The notes below the pieces were generated by a model. It searched no databases, was not told where the DNA came from, and saw only the letters and a list, made by a program, of their open reading frames with translations. Below, in pieces: positions 5,066 through 28,165 of a stretch of DNA of 64,000 bases; the stretch's first letter is position 1, and each line of letters begins with the position of its first letter. The position numbers and the translations under genes are program-made. This stretch comes from Escherichia phage tuntematon. Where the stretch lies: the sequence record NC_052660.1. One strand, written 5' to 3'.

Positions 5066-5722
5066 ATGACTATTAAACATATCTCTTTTGATGTATGGAA
5101 CACACTGATCACAGCAAACTCCAATTACGCAGACATGCGAGCCTGGACTATCGCAAAATATGGAGATATTACGGAAGTTGAAGCAAGAGCAGCTTATAAA
5201 AAAATCAAAAAGGAACTGGATAATGCAGCACTTCAAGGCAAAGCCGAGTGTGCAGCATACGCCTGGGAAAGACTCGGTTCTGAACTTGGGATAACGCCTT
5301 GGAAGTCTGCAAAGCTTCGTTTCGAGTGTGAACAGTGGTTCCTTAAGTTTCCACCACACGTAGCCGTAGATCTGCCGATGTACTTGCTGTATCTTTCTGG
5401 GCGTTATGATTTGAGTATTAAGAGCAATACCAACTTCATATCAGGGGATATTCTGCGTCGTGCTTGTAAGTTTGATAGTTGGAATTGTTTTGAGTTCACC
5501 CATTTCTCGGATGAAGCTTTACTTTGTAAACCAGATCCGCGATTCTTTGCTCGCACGCTCACGTATTCTCCGATCCCTCTGTTAGGGCACGAAGTATTGC
5601 ACGTAGGCGATAGTGAAGAATATGATGGAAAATGTGTTGACTTAGGATTTAACTTCTGTCATATTAAGAACCCTAACGACTTACTAGAGAAACTTAAAAG
5701 AGGAGAAATTGTAAATGCGTAA
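5066..5722 (+). CDS. HAD-superfamily hydrolase/phosphatase
   Basis: N-terminal ISFDVWNTLI (HAD motif I, haloacid-dehalogenase-like DxxxTL variant), KPDPRFF (motif III lysine) and HVGDSEEYDG (motif IV). Confidence 0.65.
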   Translation: MTIKHISFDVWNTLITANSNYADMRAWTIAKYGDITEVEARAAYKKIKKELDNAALQGKAECAAYAWERLGSELGITPWKSAKLRFECEQWFLKFPPHVAVDLPMYLLYLSGRYDLSIKSNTNFISGDILRRACKFDSWNCFEFTHFSDEALLCKPDPRFFARTLTYSPIPLLGHEVLHVGDSEEYDGKCVDLGFNFCHIKNPNDLLEKLKRGEIVNA

Positions 5723-6542
5723 TCAAACTCAAATTTTTGCAAATAAATTTGATGACCTGGAAACTGCTACTTTTGATATCCAAGATTATTCAAAATTGAA
5801 ATTTGGTAGTAACCAAGCCGCGCGTCGTATGGGTAAAGAATTGGCACTTCAGTTTTTTGCTCAAGTGGCAATGAAACATATTGGGGAACAATTTGTTATC
5901 ATTCCTTCTCCTTACAACCATGTGCATAATGCTGCAACAATGATGACAGATCATTTTATTAATTACTTTAATATGTTGCAAGCACAATATGATCAAGGTC
6001 GTTCAGCAGAACTGGACATTATTCATCGTAAAGTTAGCTATATCAACGATTATGGTTTCTTGGATAAAGCTAGTCGTAAGAAACTTATTGATGGGGATAC
6101 ATTCTACTGTAACAAAGAATTCTGGGGGGATAAGAAGCTTGTATTCATTGATGATGTAAATATCACTGGAACGCATGAAGACAAACTGATTGAGATCCTT
6201 AATGAAAATCAAGTTAAAAATGATGTTTACTTCCTGTATTTTGCAAAATATGAAGGTAATCAAGCAGATACCGAAGCTAAACTGAATTTTAACTACATTA
6301 ATACACCGGAAGCGTTTGTTAAAATGATTAATGAAGAACGTGATGCACAGTGTCTTGTTCGTCCTATTAAGTATCTTATGGGCCAAAATCATGAAGACTT
6401 CAAAATCATTCTTAGCCAATTGCCACATTACTATGTAGAGCAACTTTTCTTTGGATGCTTGGGAGAAGGTTACAACCGAATTTCAAAGTATGCTGAAAAC
6501 TTTGAATTCTTGGATCGTTACACAAAACAACACATTCTGTAA
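5715..6542 (+). CDS. type I phosphoribosyltransferase (PRPP-binding) family protein
   Basis: KLVFIDDVNITGTHE fits the classical PRPP-binding signature (hydrophobic run, DD, then TG-T); start overlaps the upstream stop. Confidence 0.65.
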   Translation: MRNQTQIFANKFDDLETATFDIQDYSKLKFGSNQAARRMGKELALQFFAQVAMKHIGEQFVIIPSPYNHVHNAATMMTDHFINYFNMLQAQYDQGRSAELDIIHRKVSYINDYGFLDKASRKKLIDGDTFYCNKEFWGDKKLVFIDDVNITGTHEDKLIEILNENQVKNDVYFLYFAKYEGNQADTEAKLNFNYINTPEAFVKMINEERDAQCLVRPIKYLMGQNHEDFKIILSQLPHYYVEQLFFGCLGEGYNRISKYAENFEFLDRYTKQHIL

Positions 6543-6555
6543 TAAGGAGCTAAAA

Positions 6556-7029
6556 ATGCTTAAAATGAAAACAGGTAATCTTATTGATGCCGCTAAAGCA
6601 GGTGAAGTAACTGTTATTGCTCATTGTTGCAACTGTATGTGTAATATGGGGGCAGGTATTGCCCCACAAATCAAACGAGCATTTCCTTACGCATATGCAG
6701 CAGACTTAGACACAATGGCTGGTGATCAAAGTAAACTAGGTTGTTTTAGTTTAGGGGTGCCAGACGAACAATCAGACCCTTTGGTATATAATCTATACGG
6801 GCAATACCGTTACGGATACAATGCTAAAGGTCGTCAGTTGGACTATGATGCACTTTACGATGCACTAATAGCTATGGCTAACGATTTGCTTCTCCGTGAC
6901 CAAAAATGTAAGATCGGCTTACCTATGATTGGCGCTGGACATGCTGGAGGTAATTGGGCTATCATCCAAGTGATGATTGAAGAAACTTTAGTAAAAACAG
7001 GTCACGATGTGACTATTTATAAACTTTAA
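6556..7029 (+). CDS. macro domain (ADP-ribose-binding/processing) protein
   Basis: VIAHCCNCMCNMGAGIAPQIKRAFP resembles the macro-domain N-x6-GGGV-x2-AI motif; C-terminal IGLPMIGAGHAGGNW resembles the second glycine-rich phosphate-binding loop; AAGGAG RBS before the ATG at 6556. Confidence 0.6.
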   Translation: MLKMKTGNLIDAAKAGEVTVIAHCCNCMCNMGAGIAPQIKRAFPYAYAADLDTMAGDQSKLGCFSLGVPDEQSDPLVYNLYGQYRYGYNAKGRQLDYDALYDALIAMANDLLLRDQKCKIGLPMIGAGHAGGNWAIIQVMIEETLVKTGHDVTIYKL

Positions 7030-7342: not shown

Positions 7343-8317
7343 ATGCAACTTGGTTTCCCAATTATTGATGTAGTTGTTTTAGTTGGTATTTTAGCATTGT
7401 CTATTGGTATTGATTTCTTTGGTCACAAAGAAAATAAAGAAATTTCATTCAAATCCGCAGTTGGTTGGTCGATCTTTTGGATTGGTGTATCATTAGCTTA
7501 TTATGGTTTTGTATACTTCCAACATGGTGCCGATTTTGCTAACTTGTTTTTAAGTGGATATGTGTTGGAAAAATCTTTGTCGGTAGATAACTTGGTAGTA
7601 TTTGTAGCAGTATTCGCAAGTTTTGGTATTAAAAGCACACACTTGCAGCACAAGATTCTACTTTGGGGTATTGCAGGTGCGATTGTCTTCCGAGGTGTGT
7701 TTGTAGCAGTAGGCACTTACTTGTTAAGTTTGGGCTGGTATGTTAATATCTTCTTCGGTGCGGTCATCCTTTTCTGTGCAGCTAAAATGGTATTTGCTGG
7801 AGATAATGACGCAGAAGTTGATTACTCTAAACACTGGGCTACCCGTATTGTTCGTAAACTGTTCCCTGTATCTAATAAAATGGATGGGGAGAAGTTCTTC
7901 ACAATCGAAAATGGTGTTCGTGTAGCAACTCCAGCTTTGGTTTGCGTATTCGTGATGGAAATGGTGGATGTAATCTTTGCAGTAGATTCGGTTCCAGCGG
8001 TGATCGCAGTGACACAAGAACCCCTGCTTGTATTCTCTTCGATGTTATGTGCAATCTTAGGTCTACGTGCTCTGTTCTTTGTTCTTAGTGTCGCACTGAA
8101 GTATCTGGTTCACTTGGAGAAAGCAGTTATTGTGGTTCTGGTGTTTGTAGGCGTTAAACTGATGTATCACCCGTTTGCAGAAACATTGCATGAGAAAATC
8201 AGTTTCCTGCCAGCACATATTGATCCAACTGTTAGTATGTATATCGTGCTTGGTACTTTGGCCCTTGGTGTTATTGCAAGCTTTATCTTCCCTGAAAAAG
8301 AAGAAGCTACTGTTTAA
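7343..8317 (+). CDS. terC: TerC-family integral membrane protein
   Basis: 324 aa polytopic membrane protein carrying both TerC hallmark motifs: EKSLSVDN and FAVDSVPAVIAVTQEP...AILGLRALFF. Confidence 0.88.
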   Translation: MQLGFPIIDVVVLVGILALSIGIDFFGHKENKEISFKSAVGWSIFWIGVSLAYYGFVYFQHGADFANLFLSGYVLEKSLSVDNLVVFVAVFASFGIKSTHLQHKILLWGIAGAIVFRGVFVAVGTYLLSLGWYVNIFFGAVILFCAAKMVFAGDNDAEVDYSKHWATRIVRKLFPVSNKMDGEKFFTIENGVRVATPALVCVFVMEMVDVIFAVDSVPAVIAVTQEPLLVFSSMLCAILGLRALFFVLSVALKYLVHLEKAVIVVLVFVGVKLMYHPFAETLHEKISFLPAHIDPTVSMYIVLGTLALGVIASFIFPEKEEATV

Positions 8318-9942: not shown

Positions 9943-10533
9943 ATGCATACCGAGAGAGACTTGCAACTCTTGTGGTGGGAAGTGATGCAGGAAATAAAAG
10001 AAGATTTTCCTGTTTACTACAACATGTTACGTGAAGCAGGATATAAAGCTTGTGTTAGAAACAAAGTGAATAACTCTTTCGGTTGGTGCAACTACCGAGA
10101 TAAAATTGTTGTTGTAAATTGGCACTTGCATAAGAACTCCACAAGAGATATGATCGTGGATACAATGAAGCACGAAATTGCTCATGCTATTGATGGTTGT
10201 ATGGGTAAGTTTAGTAGGCACGGTGCTCATTGGCAAAAACTGGCAGCAGAATTAGGGGCTAATCCTAAAGCCACTTCCAAAGAGCCGTTGAACCACGAAT
10301 ATAAATATGTTCTTGTTCTGGTAGATAGGTTTGCGACAAGATGTGTTAGAGGTTATAATCGTAAACCTAATCGCATGTACCCAGGTAAGCAACCTAATAT
10401 GTGGTTGAAATCAGATAAAGAAGGGACCGAAGGAAAATTATGGTTGTATAAATGGGACGATTGGGTTAAAGTAGCTAAAGAGTACGGTGTTTCACCATAT
10501 ATAAGAGATGCAGAAGAGGAGAATGAAGAATGA
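9943..10533 (+). CDS. SprT-like zinc metallopeptidase-domain protein
   Basis: HEIAHAIDG...HGAHWQKLAAELG matches the SprT-like HExxH...HG..W pattern. Confidence 0.6.
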   Translation: MHTERDLQLLWWEVMQEIKEDFPVYYNMLREAGYKACVRNKVNNSFGWCNYRDKIVVVNWHLHKNSTRDMIVDTMKHEIAHAIDGCMGKFSRHGAHWQKLAAELGANPKATSKEPLNHEYKYVLVLVDRFATRCVRGYNRKPNRMYPGKQPNMWLKSDKEGTEGKLWLYKWDDWVKVAKEYGVSPYIRDAEEENEE

Positions 10534-11642
10534 CAAGTCCATTTTTAAAAGCAGCTACTGGTGGTCAGAAGAAGCCTGAAATGAGCGTATTTGCTGCAAC
10601 AACAGATGCAAGTAAATCTGTATTCGCTCCAAGCGTGTTAGATGCCAGTCCTGTTTATGCACCAGCGGCACCGCAAGAAGTTCCAGTTTTGCCTTCTATG
10701 ACCCGACAAGAGATCGAAGAGATTGGGGCAGAGGCAGGAACAACCTTGCGTTCCTTGAATGCCGAGGTATTAAAACATCAACGTAGTAATCAAGGCGATC
10801 AGATGAGTGAACGACTCACAGCTTTGATTAAACAGGCAAAACAACTTGATCCAAACTCTATTAAACAAAGCAAGGGTATTACTAAACTCATTAAAAAAGT
10901 TATGGGTATGAAAGAAGACCTGTTTGGGGAGTTTGATAATGTTAATAACCGTATTGAAGAGTTGGTAAAGAACCTTCAAATGGATATTCGCAAAGAAGAA
11001 GATTCCTTGGTATATCTTGAAAAGCTACATCAAGCTATTGGACAGTATGCTGCAAGTTTGAACCGAGATATGCAGCTTCTAACAGCAACCTATGAAAAAG
11101 AAGAACAAGCTTTGGCTGCTCTTCCAGAAGATGCAGTAGAACAGCGACAAGTGATCCGAGATACTTTGGATCTTCTGGAGATTCGTATTGCAGATTTAAA
11201 AGCATTGCGCCTACTGTGTGTCCAAATGGGACCGCGTGTACAAGGTATGCAAAAAGTTTCTGCAAGCTTAATGCGATCTGCGCGTAACATAGTAAATAAT
11301 GTTATTCCTGCTTACTCTGCTAACTTCTCAATGTATATCGAGAGCTTACGTCAAATGAAAGCAGCAGAGACGCAGAATAACGTTCTTGATGAATTTAACC
11401 TGGCAATTAAACTGGGTAGCGATCTTGCCACACAGAATCAGATCGAAGCAGCAGCACTGGCTAACCGTCAAGTGTTGGATATTGAAACTCTGCGTCACGA
11501 TCAGGAAAACTTGGTTAAGATGTTGGAAGAAACTAACCGCATCAATACGGAAGCCCGTGCTGCTCGTGTTGATTATATTAATGAAGTTCAATCTCTGGAA
11601 GACGGGATGGTAGCTGCTGTGAAACGAGGGCTTGGTAAATGA
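10530..11642 (+). CDS. coiled-coil protein, possible TelA-like (toxic anion resistance) protein
   Basis: 370 aa, largely helical with a low-complexity N-terminus; size and position between TerC and TerD genes fit TelA, but no diagnostic motif could be confirmed by eye. Confidence 0.3.
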   Translation: MTSPFLKAATGGQKKPEMSVFAATTDASKSVFAPSVLDASPVYAPAAPQEVPVLPSMTRQEIEEIGAEAGTTLRSLNAEVLKHQRSNQGDQMSERLTALIKQAKQLDPNSIKQSKGITKLIKKVMGMKEDLFGEFDNVNNRIEELVKNLQMDIRKEEDSLVYLEKLHQAIGQYAASLNRDMQLLTATYEKEEQALAALPEDAVEQRQVIRDTLDLLEIRIADLKALRLLCVQMGPRVQGMQKVSASLMRSARNIVNNVIPAYSANFSMYIESLRQMKAAETQNNVLDEFNLAIKLGSDLATQNQIEAAALANRQVLDIETLRHDQENLVKMLEETNRINTEARAARVDYINEVQSLEDGMVAAVKRGLGK

Positions 11643-13232: not shown

Positions 13233-14027
13233 ATGTCCGAGAAAATCAGCCTGAAAAAACGTCAAGAAAACCTTGCTTTCTCTCTGAAAAAGAATAAGAA
13301 CCTGAATGAAGGTAAGATTGTTCTTCGTGTAGCATGTGCTCTAGATATTTCTGGTAGTATGCATGGTCTATATTCTAGTGGGGTAGTGAGTGATTTTGTA
13401 GGTAAACTGCTTCCTTTTGGTATGCTGTTCGACGATAATCAACAAATTGATATGTGGGCCTTCAATACGAGTTCCCAAGAGCTTACTCCAGCAACAGCAG
13501 ATGTTTACGATGACTATGTTGGTAAATGTATGCGTAATGTTCGTATCGGAGGTGGAACAAATTACGCCCCTGTAATGGCAGATATCTACGATGAGTATTT
13601 TGGCACTGTTACCAAATATATTACCACTAAACAAGTGGTACAAGAGGAGGCTCCAAAGAAAGGCTTCTTTAATCGTCTGCTTGGTAAAACTGAAACAGTA
13701 TCTGTAGAGCGTGAAAAGGTTGTAGCTGTATCTGAACCAGGTGCTGACGTTACCCCTGGTGTTGTATTCTTCCAGACAGACGGTGAGAATGGTGATCCTA
13801 GTGCTGTTCGTCGTCTTATTGAAGAGAATAAGAATAAACCTATTTATTGGTTCATGGTTGGCGTTGGTAATGAGAAGTTTGGCTTCCTGAAAGAACTGGC
13901 AAATGCTTATGATAATGTTGGTTTTATTGGCATTAAAGATTTAGACTTGACAGATTCAGAGCTTTATGACAAACTCTTATCTGAAGAGTTCGGAGAGTGG
14001 GTTGTTAAAGTAGGTGCTAAAAAATGA
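13233..14027 (+). CDS. von Willebrand factor A domain protein (TerF/TerY-like)
   Basis: MIDAS motif VACALDISGSM and FFQTDGENGD; N-terminus MSEKISLKK...FSLKK resembles TerD-family N-termini. Confidence 0.75.
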   Translation: MSEKISLKKRQENLAFSLKKNKNLNEGKIVLRVACALDISGSMHGLYSSGVVSDFVGKLLPFGMLFDDNQQIDMWAFNTSSQELTPATADVYDDYVGKCMRNVRIGGGTNYAPVMADIYDEYFGTVTKYITTKQVVQEEAPKKGFFNRLLGKTETVSVEREKVVAVSEPGADVTPGVVFFQTDGENGDPSAVRRLIEENKNKPIYWFMVGVGNEKFGFLKELANAYDNVGFIGIKDLDLTDSELYDKLLSEEFGEWVVKVGAKK

Positions 14028-14537: not shown

Positions 14538-15140
14538 ATGACTGATAAAATTTCCCTGAAAAAAGGCTCTAGCGAAAAAATTTCCCTGAAGAAGGTTGCT
14601 CCGGCTCTGAAAGAACTGCGCCTGGAATTCTCTTGGAAGTCTGATTCTAAACTGGATCTGGATGTAAGTGCACTGGTTTGTCGTCACAATGCCGCTGGCA
14701 ATCCTGAAATGCTGTCTGCACGTCATCTTGTTTGCTATGCTAACAAGTTTGATCCTGAACGTTCTACCTTCGCTGGTGACGATGTTCGTGATGGCACTGG
14801 CAGCATGGAGCAGATTGATATTACTCTGGCTAAAATCTCTCCTGATGCACAAGAGATTGCCTTTGTTCTGACCATTGATGATGATACAGGTCTGAAACGT
14901 TTTGGTCATGCTTCTGAAGGTATGCTTAAAATCTTCGACTCCGAGCGCAATGTGGAAATTCTGGATTTTGACTTCCTGGCTCCTGAAGTAGCTGGTAACA
15001 CAATCTGCCACGTGGCTTCCTTGGTTCGTGAAGATGGAGAATGGAAGCTGAAAGCATATGGTGTAGGTAAAGCTGGTCTGGATATTTGTGATGTGGTGAT
15101 GGCCTTCGGTGGTAAAAAAGAATGGTATGAATGTCCGTAA
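14538..15140 (+). CDS. terD: TerD-family stress protein
   Basis: 200 aa; N-terminal duplicated KISLKKG..KISLKK and acidic GDDVRDGTGSMEQIDITLAKISPDAQEIAFVLTI segment match the TerD domain. Confidence 0.85.
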   Translation: MTDKISLKKGSSEKISLKKVAPALKELRLEFSWKSDSKLDLDVSALVCRHNAAGNPEMLSARHLVCYANKFDPERSTFAGDDVRDGTGSMEQIDITLAKISPDAQEIAFVLTIDDDTGLKRFGHASEGMLKIFDSERNVEILDFDFLAPEVAGNTICHVASLVREDGEWKLKAYGVGKAGLDICDVVMAFGGKKEWYECP

Positions 15141-15239: not shown

Positions 15240-15761
15240 TTGCTGATAAAAAACTTTGTAACAGTTGCGTTACTATCCTTAACTGCTTTTACATTTACAC
15301 CTGTTGTGGCGAAAGCCGAAGCTGCAAACGTAAAAACCGCTAAAGTAGTTCACAAATGTACAAAGCAATATAATGATAAAATTCTATTAGCTTGTGCAAT
15401 TTACGCAGAAGGTCGCGGTCTGGGTAAAAAAGGAATGAATGCCGTTGGGAATGTGGTAATCAACAGAAGAAATGATACCTACTTCCCTAACACAGTCAGA
15501 GGAGTCTTGTTCCAGAAAGGGCAATTCTCATATGCGAAAACTTTTAACGTAACAGAGAAAGATAAGTGGCAGGAAGCAAAAGCAATAGCGGAGCGTTTAC
15601 TTTATTTAGAGAAACATTTTCCTGAATTGCGGTCTGTTTTAGATGTTACTAAAGGTGCTCTATACTTCAAGAAACGGAATATAAGAACACACTGGGAACG
15701 TGATATGCGTCTTGTTTATCGAGATAAAGTGCATGGTTTCTATCTACCAAAGGGGAGTTAA
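15240..15761 (+). CDS. secreted cell-wall hydrolase (SleB/CwlJ-like Hydrolase_2 family)
   Basis: TTG start after AGGAGG; N-terminal signal peptide; CAIYAEGRG...NVVINRR...FQKGQFSY resembles the SleB-type domain. Confidence 0.5.
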   Translation: MLIKNFVTVALLSLTAFTFTPVVAKAEAANVKTAKVVHKCTKQYNDKILLACAIYAEGRGLGKKGMNAVGNVVINRRNDTYFPNTVRGVLFQKGQFSYAKTFNVTEKDKWQEAKAIAERLLYLEKHFPELRSVLDVTKGALYFKKRNIRTHWERDMRLVYRDKVHGFYLPKGS

Positions 15762-16462: not shown

Positions 16463-17026
16463 ATGATTTATTATATTACTCCCTATCTGACAGGAAATAT
16501 CGGCAAGGCTATCAATGAAGCCATTGCCGTTCTTCCAGATGATAGTTGGGTGTGTTTAAGAGATACCGATACAATGTTCCTCCTACCTGATCAACCATCT
16601 ATGCTTGAAGAGCTTGTTATGTCAAACCCGCCTTTTGATGTAATAGGTGCAACTTGTAACAGGTTAGGCAGTGGTTATCAGCTTTTCTCTAACCAAATTA
16701 ACGATGATCCAGATATTCTAAACCATATAGAATATGCTAAGATTGCAAGAGAATATCATAAAGTAAATGTTGAAGAAGTTCCTTTCGGAACACCTCTGGC
16801 AGGTTTCTTTTTGCTTTTTAGAAAATCATTGTGGAATGAAATTCCTTTTGAAGAAAAATCTATCCAATTCGACTTAATTTTCTCTCGCACTTTACATGAA
16901 AAAGGAAAGAGGTTAGGATTGATGCGGGGAATGTATCTGTTTCACATTTACAGATTAGGTCAAACAAATCCTCAACGGTCTATACATCATTTATTACACT
17001 GTCATGATCACAGTAAAACTATTTAG
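16463..17026 (+). CDS. hypothetical protein, possibly GT-A-like glycosyltransferase
   Basis: 187 aa; CLRDTD could be a DxD-type motif; weak. Confidence 0.3.
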   Translation: MIYYITPYLTGNIGKAINEAIAVLPDDSWVCLRDTDTMFLLPDQPSMLEELVMSNPPFDVIGATCNRLGSGYQLFSNQINDDPDILNHIEYAKIAREYHKVNVEEVPFGTPLAGFFLLFRKSLWNEIPFEEKSIQFDLIFSRTLHEKGKRLGLMRGMYLFHIYRLGQTNPQRSIHHLLHCHDHSKTI

Positions 17027-17034
17027 GAGAGAAA

Positions 17035-17718
17035 ATGGAAAATATTAAAATCGGAGTGGGTGTTATCACTGTAGGTGTCCGTCCACTTAAAGACTACCTT
17101 GTAACAGATCCACGTGCAGATTTTCGAGTATTCAACGATCCAGATCGTAAAGGTGTAGCTTATGCCAGGAATGAACTTATGCACCAGTTTTATGAAGAAG
17201 GTTATGATTATTGGTTTATTTTTGACGACGATTGCTACCCAGTCATGGAGGGATGGGAAACATATTTTGTAGATCAAGCTGTCTCTGGAGGATGGGATTT
17301 CTTTGGTATGCCGGAGTACTTCAAAGATAAAGTTGTTGGAAGCAAAGGAGAAGTTATTCTCTGGGAACTTGCAATGTGTCAATTTGCAATGTATTCTCGT
17401 GCTGTTGTTGAGAAGATGGGTTATTTCCGTCCTTACACTCACGGTTATGGTTTTGAAGATGCTGAATGGGGACACCGTTTGCAAGCTGCTGGTTTGAATC
17501 ATGGTATTCAGGCAACACCTTGTCCACTTCGTATCATGGCTTATATCCACCCAGACGATGTTTTTGGAAACAATCCTATGCCTTTTGCTAACCTGACAAA
17601 AGAAGAGAAAGAGGCTGCTATTGGGATTAACTGGGAAGAATATAAAGCATCTTTAGAGGATATTAAAAATGGGAAAATCCGAATTTCCTATGAGGAGGCA
17701 CTAGCACATGTCAAATAA
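17035..17718 (+). CDS. glycosyltransferase (GT-A fold, DxD type)
   Basis: WFIFDDDCYP and later YGFEDAEWGHRL are typical of family-2-like nucleotide-sugar transferases. Confidence 0.55.
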   Translation: MENIKIGVGVITVGVRPLKDYLVTDPRADFRVFNDPDRKGVAYARNELMHQFYEEGYDYWFIFDDDCYPVMEGWETYFVDQAVSGGWDFFGMPEYFKDKVVGSKGEVILWELAMCQFAMYSRAVVEKMGYFRPYTHGYGFEDAEWGHRLQAAGLNHGIQATPCPLRIMAYIHPDDVFGNNPMPFANLTKEEKEAAIGINWEEYKASLEDIKNGKIRISYEEALAHVK

Positions 17719-18655
17719 AAAATGGTCTAAACTAAAAATTGATGCAAAACCTCACAGCGGTTGTGACTATCATCGTATTGTTATACCATTTAACAACAAT
17801 AATATTCAACCTAAGAAAGATGTTGTTGTGTTTAACCGTATCCACTCTAAAGGTGCAGAATACGTTTTATCTTTGAAACGTCAAGGTGTTAAGGTTGTTG
17901 TAGACTTAGATGATTTTTACCAACTTAATCCAGAACATTATTTAGCAAGCCTATACGAGTCAAACACTCATGCTATTGTAGCTATGGTTAAGCTTGCTGA
18001 TGTGGTTATTGTGACTACGGAATATTTGGCATATAAGATCCGTCACTTAAATAGGAATGTTGTTGTGATCCGAAATGCACTTCCTTTTGATAGCGGACAA
18101 TTCACTTTGTCAAATGATCGTTCATCCGGTACCCCTGTTGTATGGGCTGGCGGTGCTAGTCACGAACCAGACTTACGACTAGTCTCTAATACTTTCGATG
18201 ATGAACTTCTTACTATTGCGGGATATGAAGCATCACAAAGCATCACGGGACAAGAGTGGATTAAGATTCGCAGAAATTTACCAAATGCCAAATATAAAGC
18301 CGCTGTAAAAGATTTAGATAATTACATGAGTGTTTACGAAAGTCATGCTATTGCTATAGCTCCTTTGGTAGATAATGATTTTAATAATTGTAAAAGTAAT
18401 CTCAAAATCCTGGAAGCTGGAGCAAAAGGTATTCCAATTGTTTGTTCTAAGGTATTACCTTATTTTAACCCTGTAGATGCTCGCGCTGTTGCTTACGCAG
18501 AGAATAAAGCAGAATGGCATTACGAAATTGTTAAGCTTCTTCGCAATCCAAACTATCGGGAAGATCGTGGCTTGTTCTTGGCTGAACATGTTCGAACACA
18601 TTATAATCTGGCAGATGCAAACGAGTTGCGACGCCAGGTTATTGAAAGTTTGTAG
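17708..18655 (+). CDS. glycosyltransferase-like protein (GT-B-like), tandem paralog A
   Basis: 315 aa; C-terminal KSNLKILEAGAKGIPIV resembles the GT1 E-x7-E region; clear similarity to the next ORF. Confidence 0.5.
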   Translation: MSNKKWSKLKIDAKPHSGCDYHRIVIPFNNNNIQPKKDVVVFNRIHSKGAEYVLSLKRQGVKVVVDLDDFYQLNPEHYLASLYESNTHAIVAMVKLADVVIVTTEYLAYKIRHLNRNVVVIRNALPFDSGQFTLSNDRSSGTPVVWAGGASHEPDLRLVSNTFDDELLTIAGYEASQSITGQEWIKIRRNLPNAKYKAAVKDLDNYMSVYESHAIAIAPLVDNDFNNCKSNLKILEAGAKGIPIVCSKVLPYFNPVDARAVAYAENKAEWHYEIVKLLRNPNYREDRGLFLAEHVRTHYNLADANELRRQVIESL

Positions 18656-18662
18656 GTGAAGT

Positions 18663-19607
18663 ATGGGACAAATAATTCTTGACAATCGTAACGGAATCAA
18701 TTATAGTGTCTGCGATTTCCATAGGGTAGTGCTGCCTTACTCAAGGCAGTTCTCTTCACAACCTAAACACAACGTTTTCGTTTTTAACGGAGTGCCAACA
18801 AAAGGTAAAGAGGGCTTTTTAGCCCTTAAAAACCTAGGCTTTAAAATGGTTATGGATTTGGATGACTCTTTAGTTATTCCAAAAGGACACATGTTAGAAG
18901 GTATTTTTGAATCAGGTATTCGTGAACATTTAAAATGGTTTTTAGAGCACAGCGATCTTGTTACAACTACGACACCTGCTTTGCAAGTTGAACTTTCACA
19001 ATACAATGATAATGTGCACATAATCCCTAATGGTCTTCCTTACGATGAAGGTCAATTTGTGTTGACCCGTGATCGCTACTCCAAAACTCCATTAGTCTGG
19101 GCTGGAAGTGAAACACATAAACAAGATTTGGCTATCTTGCCCGATTTTGGTAAAAATCTTACAATATGTGGTTTTCGTAGGGATTCTGAAGTTTTAAGTA
19201 GTCGTGAATGGTCTGTGATCAGAGAAAATGTAGCACCAACTTGTGTTTATGAAGGTGTAAGACCATATGCCAACTACATGGAATCTTACGATGGTCATCA
19301 AATCAGTCTTGCGCCATTGCTTGATAACGTGTTTAATAATGCAAAAAGCAATCTTAAAATTCTTGAGGCAGGTGCTAAGGGTTTACCTTTGATCTGTTCT
19401 CCTCGTGAGAATTATCATACACAAGAGTTTAAAGATTTGTTATTCTTTGCTGAAACACCTTCCGAGTGGAAAGATATTACGGAATACTTATTAAGTGCTC
19501 CCGATGTTTGCATGGAGAAAGGATTAGCATTAGCTAAGTATGTCAGGACTCATTATCACATTGATGTGTTGAATGAGCGTCGTAGACTTTTATTTGAGGA
19601 GCTATAA
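18663..19607 (+). CDS. glycosyltransferase-like protein (GT-B-like), tandem paralog B
   Basis: 314 aa; shares CDFHRVVLP, VMDLDD, PLVWAG and NNAKSNLKILEAGAKGLPLICS blocks with the preceding ORF. Confidence 0.5.
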   Translation: MGQIILDNRNGINYSVCDFHRVVLPYSRQFSSQPKHNVFVFNGVPTKGKEGFLALKNLGFKMVMDLDDSLVIPKGHMLEGIFESGIREHLKWFLEHSDLVTTTTPALQVELSQYNDNVHIIPNGLPYDEGQFVLTRDRYSKTPLVWAGSETHKQDLAILPDFGKNLTICGFRRDSEVLSSREWSVIRENVAPTCVYEGVRPYANYMESYDGHQISLAPLLDNVFNNAKSNLKILEAGAKGLPLICSPRENYHTQEFKDLLFFAETPSEWKDITEYLLSAPDVCMEKGLALAKYVRTHYHIDVLNERRRLLFEEL

Positions 19608-19885
19608 TGATTAACACTTTTGATTTTGAATACACCACTCGTAACGGGAAAGCCTTAGTCGTGGAGGTGGATTACTATTATGAAGAGCCTAACCCGCTTT
19701 CTCGTGAAAGTGATTGGGATTACCACGGAGGGCTTTTAATCGACGGTATTCGTTTTTATGAAGGCTCTACAGAAGTTTTTGAAAAAGATTTAAATGTAAC
19801 TGTAGCAGAAATTGCTTTCCAATTTAGAAAGCACATGGAAGAACTAGAAGCAGAATATATGATGGAGACTAACGAACCATTTTAA
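19607..19885 (+). CDS. hypothetical protein
   Basis: 92 aa ORF; start overlaps the upstream stop (TAATG). Confidence 0.4.
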   Translation: MINTFDFEYTTRNGKALVVEVDYYYEEPNPLSRESDWDYHGGLLIDGIRFYEGSTEVFEKDLNVTVAEIAFQFRKHMEELEAEYMMETNEPF

Positions 19886-21706: not shown

Positions 21707-21735
21707 TTGACAACTTTACGGAAGGGACTTATACT
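21707..21735 (+). promoter_or_regulatory. strong sigma70-like promoter
   Basis: TTGACA (21707-21712), 17-nt spacer, TATACT (21730-21735). Confidence 0.55.
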
Positions 21736-22209: not shown

Positions 22210-23004
22210 TTGAGCAAGTTGAATACACTTGATCAATATTACACTAACCCCGCTTATGCGGGGTTCTTATGTGATAAGATCAAAGAAATTTTTGGAGAGG
22301 AAGCTAACTACGTAGAACCATCTGCGGGAGAAGGAGCTTTCTCTTTTTGTTTTAAAAACATAACTTCTTTTGATATTGACCCTAAGTTTGAAGATTGTAT
22401 TGAGGCAGATTTTTTAGCTCAATCTGTTGAGTCTGTTGGCAGTGTAACTGCTTTTGTCGGTAATCCTCCGTTTGGAAAAAATGCCAGTCTTGCCATTAAG
22501 TTCTTTAACCATTGTGCTGAAATGTTGGATAACGAAGGTGGTATTTGTTTTATCTTGCCTCGCACATTTCAAAAAATCTTTTTTGCACACAAACTAAATC
22601 CCCACATGCATCTTCTTTACGAAGAAGAATGTCCAAAAGGATCTTTTATTCTTCATGGAGAACCTTGGGATGTTCCTTGTGTATTCCAGATATGGATTAA
22701 ACGCAACGAGAAGCGTTCTCCCGTTGTTTTAGGAGAGAATCGACTGTTCGTATTAGGTAACAGTAAAGACTACGATATAGCCGTTAGGAGAGCGGGAGCA
22801 AGTGCAGGTAAAGTGTTATCAGAAGAAGATTCTTTATCTGAAGCATCTACCTACTTTTTAAAAGCCTTGACTTCTGATCTTAAAACACGTATCATTGAGG
22901 CTTACCCGTTACTTAAAGCTGAAGCTAGTAAAACTGCGGGAGTAAGAAGTTTAAGTTTAAAAGAACTTCAGTGGGTTCTGGAGAACATTAGAAAGGAGGA
23001 ATAG
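22210..23004 (+). CDS. N6-adenine DNA methyltransferase
   Basis: TTG start after AAGGAGG; motif I (VEPSAGEGAF) followed by catalytic NPPF (VGNPPFG). Confidence 0.8.
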   Translation: MSKLNTLDQYYTNPAYAGFLCDKIKEIFGEEANYVEPSAGEGAFSFCFKNITSFDIDPKFEDCIEADFLAQSVESVGSVTAFVGNPPFGKNASLAIKFFNHCAEMLDNEGGICFILPRTFQKIFFAHKLNPHMHLLYEEECPKGSFILHGEPWDVPCVFQIWIKRNEKRSPVVLGENRLFVLGNSKDYDIAVRRAGASAGKVLSEEDSLSEASTYFLKALTSDLKTRIIEAYPLLKAEASKTAGVRSLSLKELQWVLENIRKEE

Positions 23005-27277: not shown

Positions 27278-28165
27278 ATGTCCGTAATTAATACTGAAAC
27301 TGATCGTAAAGGCAAAACTGTAACTTATGCAACTGGTATCGTAGACTACGTTAAACTGGATAAATTCGCTGAACCTAAAACTTTTCATTGGGAAGGAAAA
27401 ACGATTGTTTCAACTCACCGAGCTTCTCTTGTTCTGAAAGAGAAAGGTGCTAAACCAGATGAGAAAGGTGTTTGGATTTCTCTTGGTGACATTGAACTGA
27501 AAGAAGGTTATGAAAACCTACAAGTCAAAGAAGGTGATAACTGGATCACTATTGAAAAAGGTGTAGAAGTAAGTATTGATATTGATCGCGTTGATAATAA
27601 AGGCGGTAAAACTTACTACAATACTAAAAAATCTCGTATTACAGTATTGTCTACCGATGGTGTTCAGAAGTCTAACAAATCTTCTGGCAATAAGGGGTCC
27701 AACGATGCGGCTCCTAAACAATCCTATAAAAAACGTGATACTGTAGGTCTGGAAACTGGTCACGCAGTAAATGGTGCACTGGAACTGATTCGTAATGGTG
27801 TTAAAGGTGATGCTTTCGATATCGCTGGGGTTGTTCAATCTGCAACTGTCACACTGAAATCGGAAATTGCTGAATCTCGTGGCGTTGATATTAATGATTA
27901 TGATCTTGGGGCATCTGTTGGTCACGCTATCCTCAATGCTTGTAAAGACCATACCATTAAGACTGTATCTGTAGAAGATCTGATTGATTCTGCTCGTAAA
28001 GTTCTGGCTCTGTCTGATAAAGTTGCTGCTGCCATTCGTGGTTCCGCAGAACAACCTAAGAAAGAAGAGAAGAAAGAAGTTAAGAAACCTGAACCACAAC
28101 CAGAACCAACTCCAAGTAATCAAGAAGAACCTCCAATGGACTTCGACGATGATATTCCATTCTGA
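27278..28165 (+). CDS. single-stranded DNA-binding protein-like, with SSB-type acidic C-terminal tip
   Basis: Last residues EEPPMDFDDDIPF reproduce the canonical bacterial SSB tip (PPMDFDDDIPF); Pro/Glu/Lys-rich linker precedes it; N-terminal domain not recognisable by eye. Confidence 0.6.
   Translation: MSVINTETDRKGKTVTYATGIVDYVKLDKFAEPKTFHWEGKTIVSTHRASLVLKEKGAKPDEKGVWISLGDIELKEGYENLQVKEGDNWITIEKGVEVSIDIDRVDNKGGKTYYNTKKSRITVLSTDGVQKSNKSSGNKGSNDAAPKQSYKKRDTVGLETGHAVNGALELIRNGVKGDAFDIAGVVQSATVTLKSEIAESRGVDINDYDLGASVGHAILNACKDHTIKTVSVEDLIDSARKVLALSDKVAAAIRGSAEQPKKEEKKEVKKPEPQPEPTPSNQEEPPMDFDDDIPF

Follow-up and report, generated by a model that had tools for sequence, protein, structure and literature searches.

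A portable trio of glycosyltransferase genes in phAPEC8-like and other phages, with a possible role in virion-protein glycosylation

Organization of the glycosyltransferase block

The stretch of DNA analyzed here, referred to as the window, comprises 64,000 nucleotides from a Phapecoctavirus, a phAPEC8-like phage of E. coli. Positions 16463-19607 hold four co-directional glycosyltransferase genes on the plus strand; two of the products have a GT-A fold, and the other two are GT-B-like paralogues. GT1 (16463..17026) is a minimal GT-A-fold glycosyltransferase of 187 aa with the DxD motif D34-T-D36, orthologous to phAPEC8 gp071. GT2 (17035..17718), the gp072 orthologue, is a GT-A-fold (GT2-like) enzyme of 227 aa with invariant D64-D65-D66 and E141-D142. 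The open reading frame of GT3 (17708..18655), which overlaps the end of GT2 by 11 nt, encodes a GT-B-like protein of 315 aa with a GT4-type C-terminal domain, orthologous to gp073, and GT4 (18663..19607) is its tandem paralogue of 314 aa, orthologous to gp074. The glycosyltransferase identity of the four products is real and is known annotation, gp071-074 being named "glycosyltransferase" in RefSeq already. A preliminary description of the window had proposed four such genes with a tandem pair at 17708-18655 and 18663-19607; GT-A folds and motifs, near-cutoff GT-B-family matches and the RefSeq names bear out the first claim, and 41% identity (E 1e-76) between GT3 and GT4 the second.

The block adjoins genes for a primase-helicase, a DNA methyltransferase and a DNA polymerase, in agreement with the placement beside the first two described earlier, and is closely packed with the primase-helicase gene, with which it is probably co-transcribed. 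It lies downstream of a cell-wall hydrolase gene and directly 3' of a Ter-like membrane-stress cluster (HAD, PRTase_3, Macro, TerC, TelA, vWA-TerF and TerD); the place behind a Ter-like cluster is shared by two other loci, L006 and L015. In the window, the block is not beside structural genes. The phi92-like relatives carry the same block at ~71% identity, and rV5 has the same replication genes with the block absent.

Folds, motifs and profile matches

Structure prediction gave both GT1 and GT2 the Rossmann-like alpha/beta/alpha arrangement of a GT-A fold, with the DxD motif following a predicted core beta-strand in each. The DxD signature noted earlier in GT2 corresponds to D64-D65-D66, invariant in its family, and GT1, previously a weaker candidate, shows D34-x-D36 conserved in at least 90% of its family. 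Against Pfam Glycos_transf_2 (PF00535), GT2 scored 13.3 bits, below the 23.3 cutoff, and GT1 had no match. GT3 matches phrog_7162 (E 1e-148) and gave sub-threshold scores of 20.4-22.8 bits with Glyco_trans_1_4 and Glyco_trans_1_2 (cutoffs 25-27), while GT4 barely reached the Glyco_trans_1_2 cutoff (25.1 against 25.0 bits). Many of the 207 GT3 homologues carry a precomputed PF13524 or PF13692 assignment, and the motif KSNLKxLEAGAKG is conserved. The GT3/GT4 duplication is confined to Stephanstirmvirinae-like phages; a single GT-B is found in the relatives L005, L015, L028 and L029 and in Klebsiella phages. Sequence and profile searches of the PDB returned no glycosyltransferase match for any of the three families, and NCBIfam no match for GT1-GT4. 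Transmembrane segments were not detected in the four proteins (maximum 19-residue hydropathy at most 1.65).

Donor sugar

Outside the window, phAPEC8 gp166-169 encode RmlB, RmlA, RmlC and RmlD, and all four exceed the NCBIfam equivalog cutoffs: 431 bits for TIGR01181 (cutoff 365), 464 for TIGR01207 (361), 225 for TIGR01221 (156) and 237 for TIGR01214 (224). In three loci (L005, L008 and L028) the module itself contains a gene resembling dTDP-glucose-4,6-dehydratase, and rml genes adjoin distant cellular homologues of the GT-B. These data suggest that a 6-deoxyhexose nucleotide probably serves as one or more of the donors, the likeliest candidate being dTDP-L-rhamnose supplied by the phage RmlABCD.

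The trio in other viral loci

The comparison took in 42 viral loci whose GT-B shares about 36% identity or more. Of these, 34 have a GT2-like gene next to it and 28 a GT1-like gene, which shows that GT1, GT2 and a GT-B form a portable trio across unrelated phages. The order of the three genes is shuffled (1-2-B, 2-B-1 or B-2), and this variation argues that their linkage is functional and not merely inherited. The close GT-B family is overwhelmingly viral: at least 551 viral stretches carry it, as against some 15 loci from 185,579 bacterial species, where the Pseudomonas examples are prophages. In Trinickia, one chromosomal homologue has a gene for an intimin/invasin-type adhesin next to it.

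In all 18 loci with recognisable neighbours outside the Stephanstirmvirinae-like lineage, the module lies beside packaging or head genes and never beside replication genes, so that nearness to replication genes is a trait of that lineage only. The module lies directly upstream of TerL in L030, L033, L034, L041, L042 and L058 and in the prophages L007, L008, L013 and L099-L101. In L037, L039, L044, L048, L050 and L051 the head operon contains it, flanked by capsid and head-completion genes. By Pfam assignment, L048 reads TerL, portal, S78 protease, Phage_capsid, GT2 homologue, GT-B, GT1 homologue and head-completion genes, followed by HK97-gp10-like, tail tube and tape measure genes; a 66-aa ORF is stop/start-coupled to the GT2 homologue, and a promoter-like site is absent. 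Pfam assignment of 150 neighbours from ten diverse loci, covering the recurrent families and the first 25 singleton families listed, showed lysis/antitermination genes, terminases, portals, capsids, Mu-F and tape measures to be recurrent, and no DNA-base-modifying family among the recurrent neighbours.

Candidate acceptors other than the virion

Two roles had been put forward in the preliminary description, sugar hypermodification of phage DNA and modification of the host surface; both are poorly supported, and the comparative data favour virion proteins, an acceptor that it did not consider. DNA hypermodification, a role that Olsen et al. (2020) had suggested as well, would have the enzymes place rhamnose or other sugars on modified bases to evade restriction. 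The block's place next to the primase-helicase, DNA methyltransferase and DNA polymerase genes, its apparent co-transcription with them and the position of the dTDP-sugar pathway within the nucleotide-metabolism region of the phage (PMC7552041) speak for it, as do the matches of GT2, in common with T-even and TAGT enzymes a soluble phage GT-A with a similar DxD region and a gene among those of DNA metabolism. GT2 weakly resembles Pfam TAGT (PF20691) in 11/16 family members (best E 1e-4) and matches the PHROG of the T-even beta-glucosyl-HMC-alpha-glucosyltransferase (phrog_842, E 7.6e-6). However, these matches span only ~37 residues around the DxD (residues 32-68 for TAGT, 32-70 for phrog_842) and are all below the gathering score; GT2 itself scored 19.5 bits with TAGT against a cutoff of 27.5. 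A Foldseek search of the viral structures in BFVD with GT2 returned only generic GT-A proteins, many of them without a name, and none was named as a T-even DNA glucosyltransferase. Unlike the T-even and TAGT enzymes, GT2 also has no hydroxymethylase or TET/JBP partner that could be found among the phAPEC8 ORFs scanned. The hydroxymethylating enzyme had been named as a requirement of this role and a search for dCMP/dUMP hydroxymethylase or related genes called for; neither the Thymidylat_synt nor the Tet_JBP domain was present in the scanned non-structural phAPEC8 ORFs of at least 140 aa (those of chunks 4-8, 10-13 and 19, apart from PhoH gp173 and lysozyme gp172, and gp157 of chunk 9), and the thymidylate synthase, gp156, is ThyX (PF02511; TIGR02170) and not of the ThyA fold. 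The lack of any recurrent base-modifying neighbour, the rV5 replication genes without the block, and the trio in head operons of lambdoid/HK97-like temperate phages, with no phage DNA polymerase seen in the fetched ~20 kb, likewise count against a DNA target. Furthermore, the phi92-like phages that carry the block are exceptionally sensitive to type I, II and III restriction-modification in published phenotyping (PMC8594841; noted too in PMC10844046). DNA glycosylation is therefore unlikely, and the least probable of the readings considered here. Protein charge was tried as a proxy for DNA binding (pI 4.7-5.3 for the GT2 family, 5.2-6.6 for GT1 and 5.7-9.4 for GT-B) and discarded, since the phage methyltransferase and primase-helicase are equally acidic and pI or net charge thus says nothing on DNA binding.

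The main rival, which we consider rather unlikely, is a rhamnose-containing glycan built on a host Und-PP primer (e.g. Und-PP-GlcNAc of ECA/O-antigen), which would change a surface receptor or sequester the lipid carrier; in the sequestration version the carrier is tied up and the wall weakened late in infection. The distant cellular relatives are indeed lipid-linked polysaccharide synthases: in bacterial rhamnan and O-polysaccharide synthases (RgpF-, WbsX- and GT2-containing fused proteins), a homologous GT-B domain (25-30% identity) is combined with GT-A modules beside rmlABCD or dTDP-rhamnose genes. In contrast to these, the phage domains are separate small proteins of an almost exclusively viral close family, and they come without machinery for initiation on a lipid carrier or for export: in none of the loci examined does an initiating phosphoglycosyltransferase, flippase, polymerase, ligase or ABC exporter adjoin the module. 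Late expression from a head operon would leave little time for surface remodelling, and adjacency to lysis genes, which any insertion at the lysis/terminase junction would show, is not seen in the head-operon copies of the module. In its classical seroconversion sense the host-surface role lacks support, which leaves the lipid-linked glycan as its surviving form: no GtrA flippase, membrane-anchored GtrB or GtrC was seen among the neighbours, GT1-GT4 have no TM-compatible segment, and sigma-70-like promoters upstream of the prophage copies were at or below chance in a consensus scan. Classical lysogenic conversion was rejected as unlikely on these grounds. The window phage itself has no annotated integrase, the sole candidate being gp216, a putative site-specific recombinase. 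Well-known bacterial toxins include GT-A enzymes acting on host proteins, and the target could instead be a host protein glycosylated to take over the cell. It could also be a small molecule, for instance the nucleoside-like metabolite that has been proposed for Ter-associated PRTase/HAD systems; the window, L006 and L015 encode such systems just ahead of the block. The adhesin beside the Trinickia homologue would also fit such an acceptor. This alternative is improbable: most other phages have the trio without Ter genes, three or four serial transferases suggest an oligosaccharide and not a single regulatory sugar, and no candidate target emerges.

Glycosylation of virion proteins

The best reading of the block, held tentatively and a little short of an even chance, is glycosylation of virion proteins with a rhamnose-containing glycan, and as part of it GT1-GT4 are best explained as soluble cytoplasmic glycosyltransferases of one serial pathway. 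One transferase would add the first sugar to the acceptor and the others would lengthen it into a short oligosaccharide, with dTDP-L-rhamnose from the phage RmlABCD as at least one likely donor. The acceptor would be the phage's own capsid and/or tail proteins, which would receive their sugars in the cytoplasm, prior to assembly or in the course of it. We infer the order of action, the donor and, above all, the acceptor, the last with the mycobacteriophages as a model.

Virion glycosylation has been proven experimentally in mycobacteriophages, where Che8 gp108-110, Corndog gp38 and Myrna are cited as virion-glycosylation cassettes (Freeman 2023, as cited in PMC12363180). Che8 gp108-110 are three glycosyltransferases of 391, 232 and 211 aa whose genes immediately precede an HNH gene at the cos/terminase end, and Corndog gp38 lies between a portal-size gene and the capsid protease. 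Relatives of the trio occupy the same two positions, ahead of the HNH/terminase end in some loci and within the head operon in others, which argues for a virion acceptor. Both sets consist of consecutive soluble glycosyltransferases, one of GT-B size (about 310-390 aa) together with small enzymes of 180-230 aa. No homology to Che8 gp108-110 was detectable (hhalign probabilities 0.1-0.3%), so the parallel is architectural only. The trio differs from the mycobacteriophage cassettes in its Gram-negative hosts, its dedicated dTDP-rhamnose pathway and, in the window, its place beside replication genes. Homologous trios lie in or abut a packaging/head operon in 18 other loci, whereas in the window the block abuts the primase-helicase gene; this placement away from structural genes, the probable co-transcription and the hydrolase and Ter-like cluster upstream all count against a virion role, as does the fact that structural operons can also receive inserted morons. 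The lipid-linked synthases among the distant cellular relatives and the consistent, if sub-threshold, resemblance of GT2 to TAGT weigh in the same direction. More broadly, it is possible, if somewhat more doubtful, that the trio is a mobile virion-glycosylation cassette of Gram-negative phages that places a rhamnose glycan on the capsid and/or tail.

Phapecoctavirus and phi92-like phages are among the coliphages of broadest host range and have repeatedly been proposed for therapy and biocontrol. In the literature searched, statements on glycosyltransferase function in phAPEC8, phi92 and the Stephanstirmvirinae are speculation only; their "rhamnose modification" has been read as a probable modification of the DNA in spite of the phages' sensitivity to restriction, and there is no report of glycosylated virion proteins in them. 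If the virion reading is true, virion glycosylation, so far demonstrated in mycobacteriophages only, would extend to Gram-negative phages, its first case outside actinobacteriophages, and such a cassette would be present in coliphages of therapy cocktails. In mycobacteriophages virion glycosylation shields the particles from antibodies, and a virion role here would bear on the immunogenicity and stability of the particles, on their adhesion to mucus or surfaces and possibly on how capsid-sensing defence systems recognise them. With only three genes, the trio is also a compact marker by which such phages can be sought in metagenomes. In the phage collection, the module occurs among cultured phages only in Stephanstirmvirinae and related Klebsiella phages, and no cultured E217-like Pseudomonas phage, for which cryo-EM maps are published, carries it there. 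Capsid glycosylation is also a feature of chlorovirus PBCV-1, a eukaryotic giant virus, whose A064R and related glycosyltransferases resemble the trio at the level of the fold only.

Gene layout and identification of the glycosyltransferases

Across its 3145 bp, the glycosyltransferase (GT) stretch shares 99.6% identity with Escherichia phages PNJ1809-36 and ASO2A and 99.0% with phAPEC8; in total, 63 phage records match it at 95% or more. These matches place the window in a Phapecoctavirus genome (Stephanstirmvirinae), that of a virulent myovirus of about 150 kb. All four open reading frames claimed at 16463-19607 in the preliminary description were found there in an ORF check: GT1 (16463-17026) and GT2 (17035-17718), of GT-A fold, and the paralogous, GT-B-like GT3 (17708-18655) and GT4 (18663-19607), all on the + strand. 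Along this strand the genes run from an anaerobic ribonucleotide reductase through a Ter-like cluster, a SleB-like hydrolase and GT1-GT4 to a primase-helicase, a DNA methyltransferase and DNA polymerase A; tail and head genes occupy the − strand from about 28.2 kb.

GT1 and GT2 are separated by 8 nt, GT2 and GT3 overlap by 11 nt, and GT3 and GT4 are separated by 7 nt. A 92-aa gene (19607-19885, +) begins within the GT4 stop codon, and the primase-helicase follows 12 nt further on. No promoter-like or terminator-like site was found within the short gaps from GT1 through the primase-helicase; the first strong promoter-like site past the block lies at 21707-21735, 3' of the primase-helicase, where a promoter is annotated in phAPEC8. 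The 92-aa protein is very acidic (pI 4.2; phrog_4240, unknown function). Its position after the GT block and ahead of the primase-helicase is conserved in three other loci (L005, L006, L015), and it may be part of either the GT or the replication module.

PHROG 'glycosyltransferase' families are matched by all four proteins (E 1e-79 to 1e-149), and RefSeq gives the same name to the phAPEC8 orthologues gp071-074, so the identification was public beforehand. Calling the four genes glycosyltransferases was right. Support from curated libraries is much less sure: no NCBIfam model matched any of GT1-GT4, and all Pfam matches fell below the gathering score except that of GT4 to Glyco_trans_1_2 (25.1 vs 25.0). 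The GT module is a member of no curated family.

A portable trio of GT genes

Homologues of GT1 and GT2 (GT1h, GT2h) form small families that lie nearly all on phage-like contigs. The GT-B family is larger (207 matches), its few 'bacterial' members being in prophages. BLAST of neighbours showed that GT1-like, GT2-like and GT-B genes travel together in L005 and L008, as do GT2h and GT-B in Pseudomonas prophages. In L005, a distant 135-kb myovirus, a dTDP-glucose-4,6-dehydratase-like gene lies between GT1h and GT2h. The lambdoid Enterobacter prophage L008 has the order endolysin, GT1h, dehydratase, GT2h, GT-B, HNH, TerS, TerL, capsid, and the Pseudomonas prophages L007, L013 and L014 have holin, GT2h, GT-B, two to three small genes, TerL, portal, capsid.

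A census of 79 IMG/VR loci was carried out using HMMs of the three families, with seed proteins for the neighbours. Of the 42 loci with a GT-B at about 36% identity or more, 34 have GT2h next to it and 28 have GT1h, contig ends truncating several of those that do not; gene order varied (1-2-B, 2-B-1, B-2). Loci below about 35% identity hold lone GT-Bs of another subfamily. Three loci (L021, L022, L023; GT-B ~73% identity) have a GT1-like gene followed directly by two GT-Bs, with no GT2-like gene, so the trio is not obligatory in every lineage.

Genomic context divides the loci sharply: the module lies upstream of primase-helicase and PolA in 14, all Stephanstirmvirinae-like, and with packaging or head genes in 18; ten are unlabelled. 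Replication genes stood beside it in no locus of this census outside the Stephanstirmvirinae-like lineage. One recurrent arrangement places the trio within the head operon. By Pfam, L048 encodes TerL, portal, S78 prohead protease, Phage_capsid, GT2h, GT-B, GT1h and a head-completion protein, followed by HK97-gp10-like, tail tube and tape measure proteins, and the order in L051 is identical. The L048 capsid gene has on its 3' side a GC-rich hairpin and an ORF of 66 aa that ends in an overlap of its stop with the GT2h start codon; no promoter-like site is present. In a Pfam census of neighbours (150 ORFs, ten diverse loci), the best 25 of 81 families included recurrent terminases, portals, capsid proteins, Mu-F, tape measures, antiterminator Q and lysis genes; no DNA-base-modifying family recurred among these 25.

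GT genes 71-99% identical in protein to those of Phapecoctavirus/Justusliebigvirus coliphages also occur in records labelled for Campylobacter (MG065650, MG065645, MG065689, MG065639, MG065656), Acinetobacter (OP562383) and Pseudomonas (OR584014). These labels look doubtful, the sources possibly being contaminant or co-isolated coliphages.

Proposed role in virion glycosylation

The assembled evidence favours a role absent from the preliminary description, the glycosylation of virion proteins. On this reading, the window block would represent the form that a mobile GT-A/GT-A/GT-B cassette takes in Stephanstirmvirinae, where its GT-B is duplicated; the cassette would draw on 6-deoxyhexose nucleotides as sugar donors and have virion proteins as putative acceptors. 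Judged from gene linkage and placement, this role with this donor supply is a plausible proposal, tentatively held.

Olsen et al. described a complete dTDP-rhamnose pathway encoded by phapecoctaviruses and phi92-like phages (PMC7552041). In phAPEC8, gp166-169 score above the curated cutoffs of the RmlB, RmlA, RmlC and RmlD equivalog models. These genes lie ~70 kb from the GT block, outside the window, as rmlB-A-C-D between nrdB and glutaredoxin (NC_020079, 37131-40409). The relative rV5 carries no GT genes in the region that encodes its methyltransferase, primase/helicase and DNA polymerase, and in its genome nrdB and the glutaredoxin gene are direct neighbours (NC_011041, 84286-85656). The rml cluster is therefore an insertion into the nucleotide-metabolism module. 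As rV5 has neither it nor the GT block, both are cargo specific to the lineage and not ancestral components of the replication module. Distant GT-B homologues (25-30%) are domains of fusion proteins (GT2+GT-B, RgpF+GT-B, WbsX+GT-B) with rml genes alongside, as in L116, L118, L121, L123 and L124 (Giesbergeria, Anaerolineaceae, Thauera, Simplicispira), where multidomain GTs of 900-1700 aa lie beside rmlA/B/C/D. These fusions are lipid-linked rhamnan or O-polysaccharide synthases, which supports dTDP-rhamnose as donor and sugar-to-sugar extension.

A passage of PMC12363180 citing Freeman et al. 2023 describes mycobacteriophages as glycosylating capsid and tail-tube proteins by their own GTs, with Che8 gp110 and Corndog gp38 essential for virion glycosylation. 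The Che8 cassette consists of three consecutive GTs (391, 232 and 211 aa). A small gene separates it from an HNH endonuclease gene at the end of the genome, beside cos and terminase, and the trio of the Enterobacter prophage is arranged likewise. Corndog gp38 lies between a portal-size gene and the capsid maturation protease, analogous to the head-operon trio in L048 and L051. Profile comparisons gave no specific homology of the Che8 enzymes to those of the trio. The resemblance is one of architecture and placement, not of family membership, and the GT module is a sequence-unrelated counterpart of the mycobacteriophage system.

Alternative roles

Sugar hypermodification of phage DNA, one of two roles offered in the preliminary description, is quite unlikely. 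It was correctly noted that this role requires a base-hydroxymethylating enzyme elsewhere in the genome. The phAPEC8 genome was pieced together, and non-structural ORFs of at least 140 aa in chunks 4-8, 10-13 and 19, plus gp157, were scanned with Pfam. These ORFs yielded no Thymidylat_synt or Tet_JBP domain, and the sole thymidylate-synthase-like protein among them, gp156, next to a 5'-deoxynucleotidase-like protein, is a ThyX (PF02511, 30.7 vs 24.8; TIGR02170), not of the ThyA fold shared by known dCMP/dUMP hydroxymethylases. A link to DNA is hinted at only by the matches of GT2 to Pfam TAGT and to the PHROG of T-even beta-glucosyl-HMC-alpha-glucosyltransferase; the TAGT match recurs in 11 of 16 GT2 family members, but in every case it spans ~37 residues at the DxD and stays sub-threshold. 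Furthermore, phi92-like relatives from BASEL are reported to be highly RM-sensitive (PMC8594841), and these phages (PaulScherrer, JohannJBalmer and EmilieFrey) carry the same GT block at ~71% protein identity, which makes wholesale base glycosylation unlikely; rare or sequence-specific DNA modification is possible.

The second role, modification of the host surface, is not supported in its classical form, given the lack of membrane segments, partners and an own promoter, and is possible only in a non-classical form. A lipid-linked product that would, for example, sequester the carrier or alter ECA/LPS receptors is doubtful, with some chance of being correct. Cellular cousins of the GT-B act on undecaprenyl-linked acceptors, the window block lies 3' of the SleB-like cell-wall hydrolase and the Ter-like membrane-stress cluster, and the module lies 3' of lysis genes in class-B prophages, all of which leave room for such a product. 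However, neither an initiating transferase nor a flippase, polymerase, ligase or exporter was seen in the loci examined, the GT proteins have no membrane segments, prophage copies have no promoter of their own in a sigma-70-like consensus scan, and late expression would give the surface little time to be remodelled. Bacterial genomes seldom carry the close GT-B family, with ~15 loci at 34% identity or more across 185,579 species.

Additional observations

A chromosomal GT-B homologue (~42% identity) with no phage genes near it occurs in Trinickia symbiotica (L012/L104; PYUC01000018). Beside it are genes for an adhesin of the intimin/invasin type (1128 aa; IAT_beta, Invasin_D3, Big_1) and for a 555-aa protein without a Pfam match, and the locus may represent an adhesin-glycosylation context.

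At least four DNA methyltransferase genes are annotated, one in the window (22210-23004, +) and gp117, gp177 and gp194 in phAPEC8. The former has an NPPF motif, and relatives are nonetheless reported as highly RM-sensitive (PMC8594841). The SleB-type cell-wall hydrolase (15240-15761, +; Pfam Hydrolase_2, E 1.9e-17; annotated 'endolysin') belongs to the early/middle block and lies shortly before the GT genes. In phAPEC8, gp172, a T4-like lysozyme, is also encoded near the terminase, as is an Rz-like spanin, giving two lysin-like enzymes in separate modules.

The Ter-like stress-response set of this virulent phage spans 5066-15140 on the + strand, with a HAD-like hydrolase (5066-5722), a PRTase_3/ComF-like phosphoribosyltransferase (5715-6542; E 4.5e-42), a Macro domain (6556-7029), TerC (7343-8317), SprT-like (9943-10533), TelA (10530-11642), vWA-TerF-like (13233-14027) and TerD (14538-15140) proteins. 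In L006 and L015 this same cluster is likewise found ahead of the GT block. Finally, a 295-aa protein (27278-28165, +; phAPEC8 orthologue gp085), with no Pfam match, may from its sequence features be a divergent single-stranded-DNA-binding protein: the C-terminus of gp085 is a low-complexity tail rich in Lys, Glu and Pro, closed by an acidic tip (...MDFDDDIPF), and a tip of this type is the hallmark C-terminus of bacterial-type SSB proteins.
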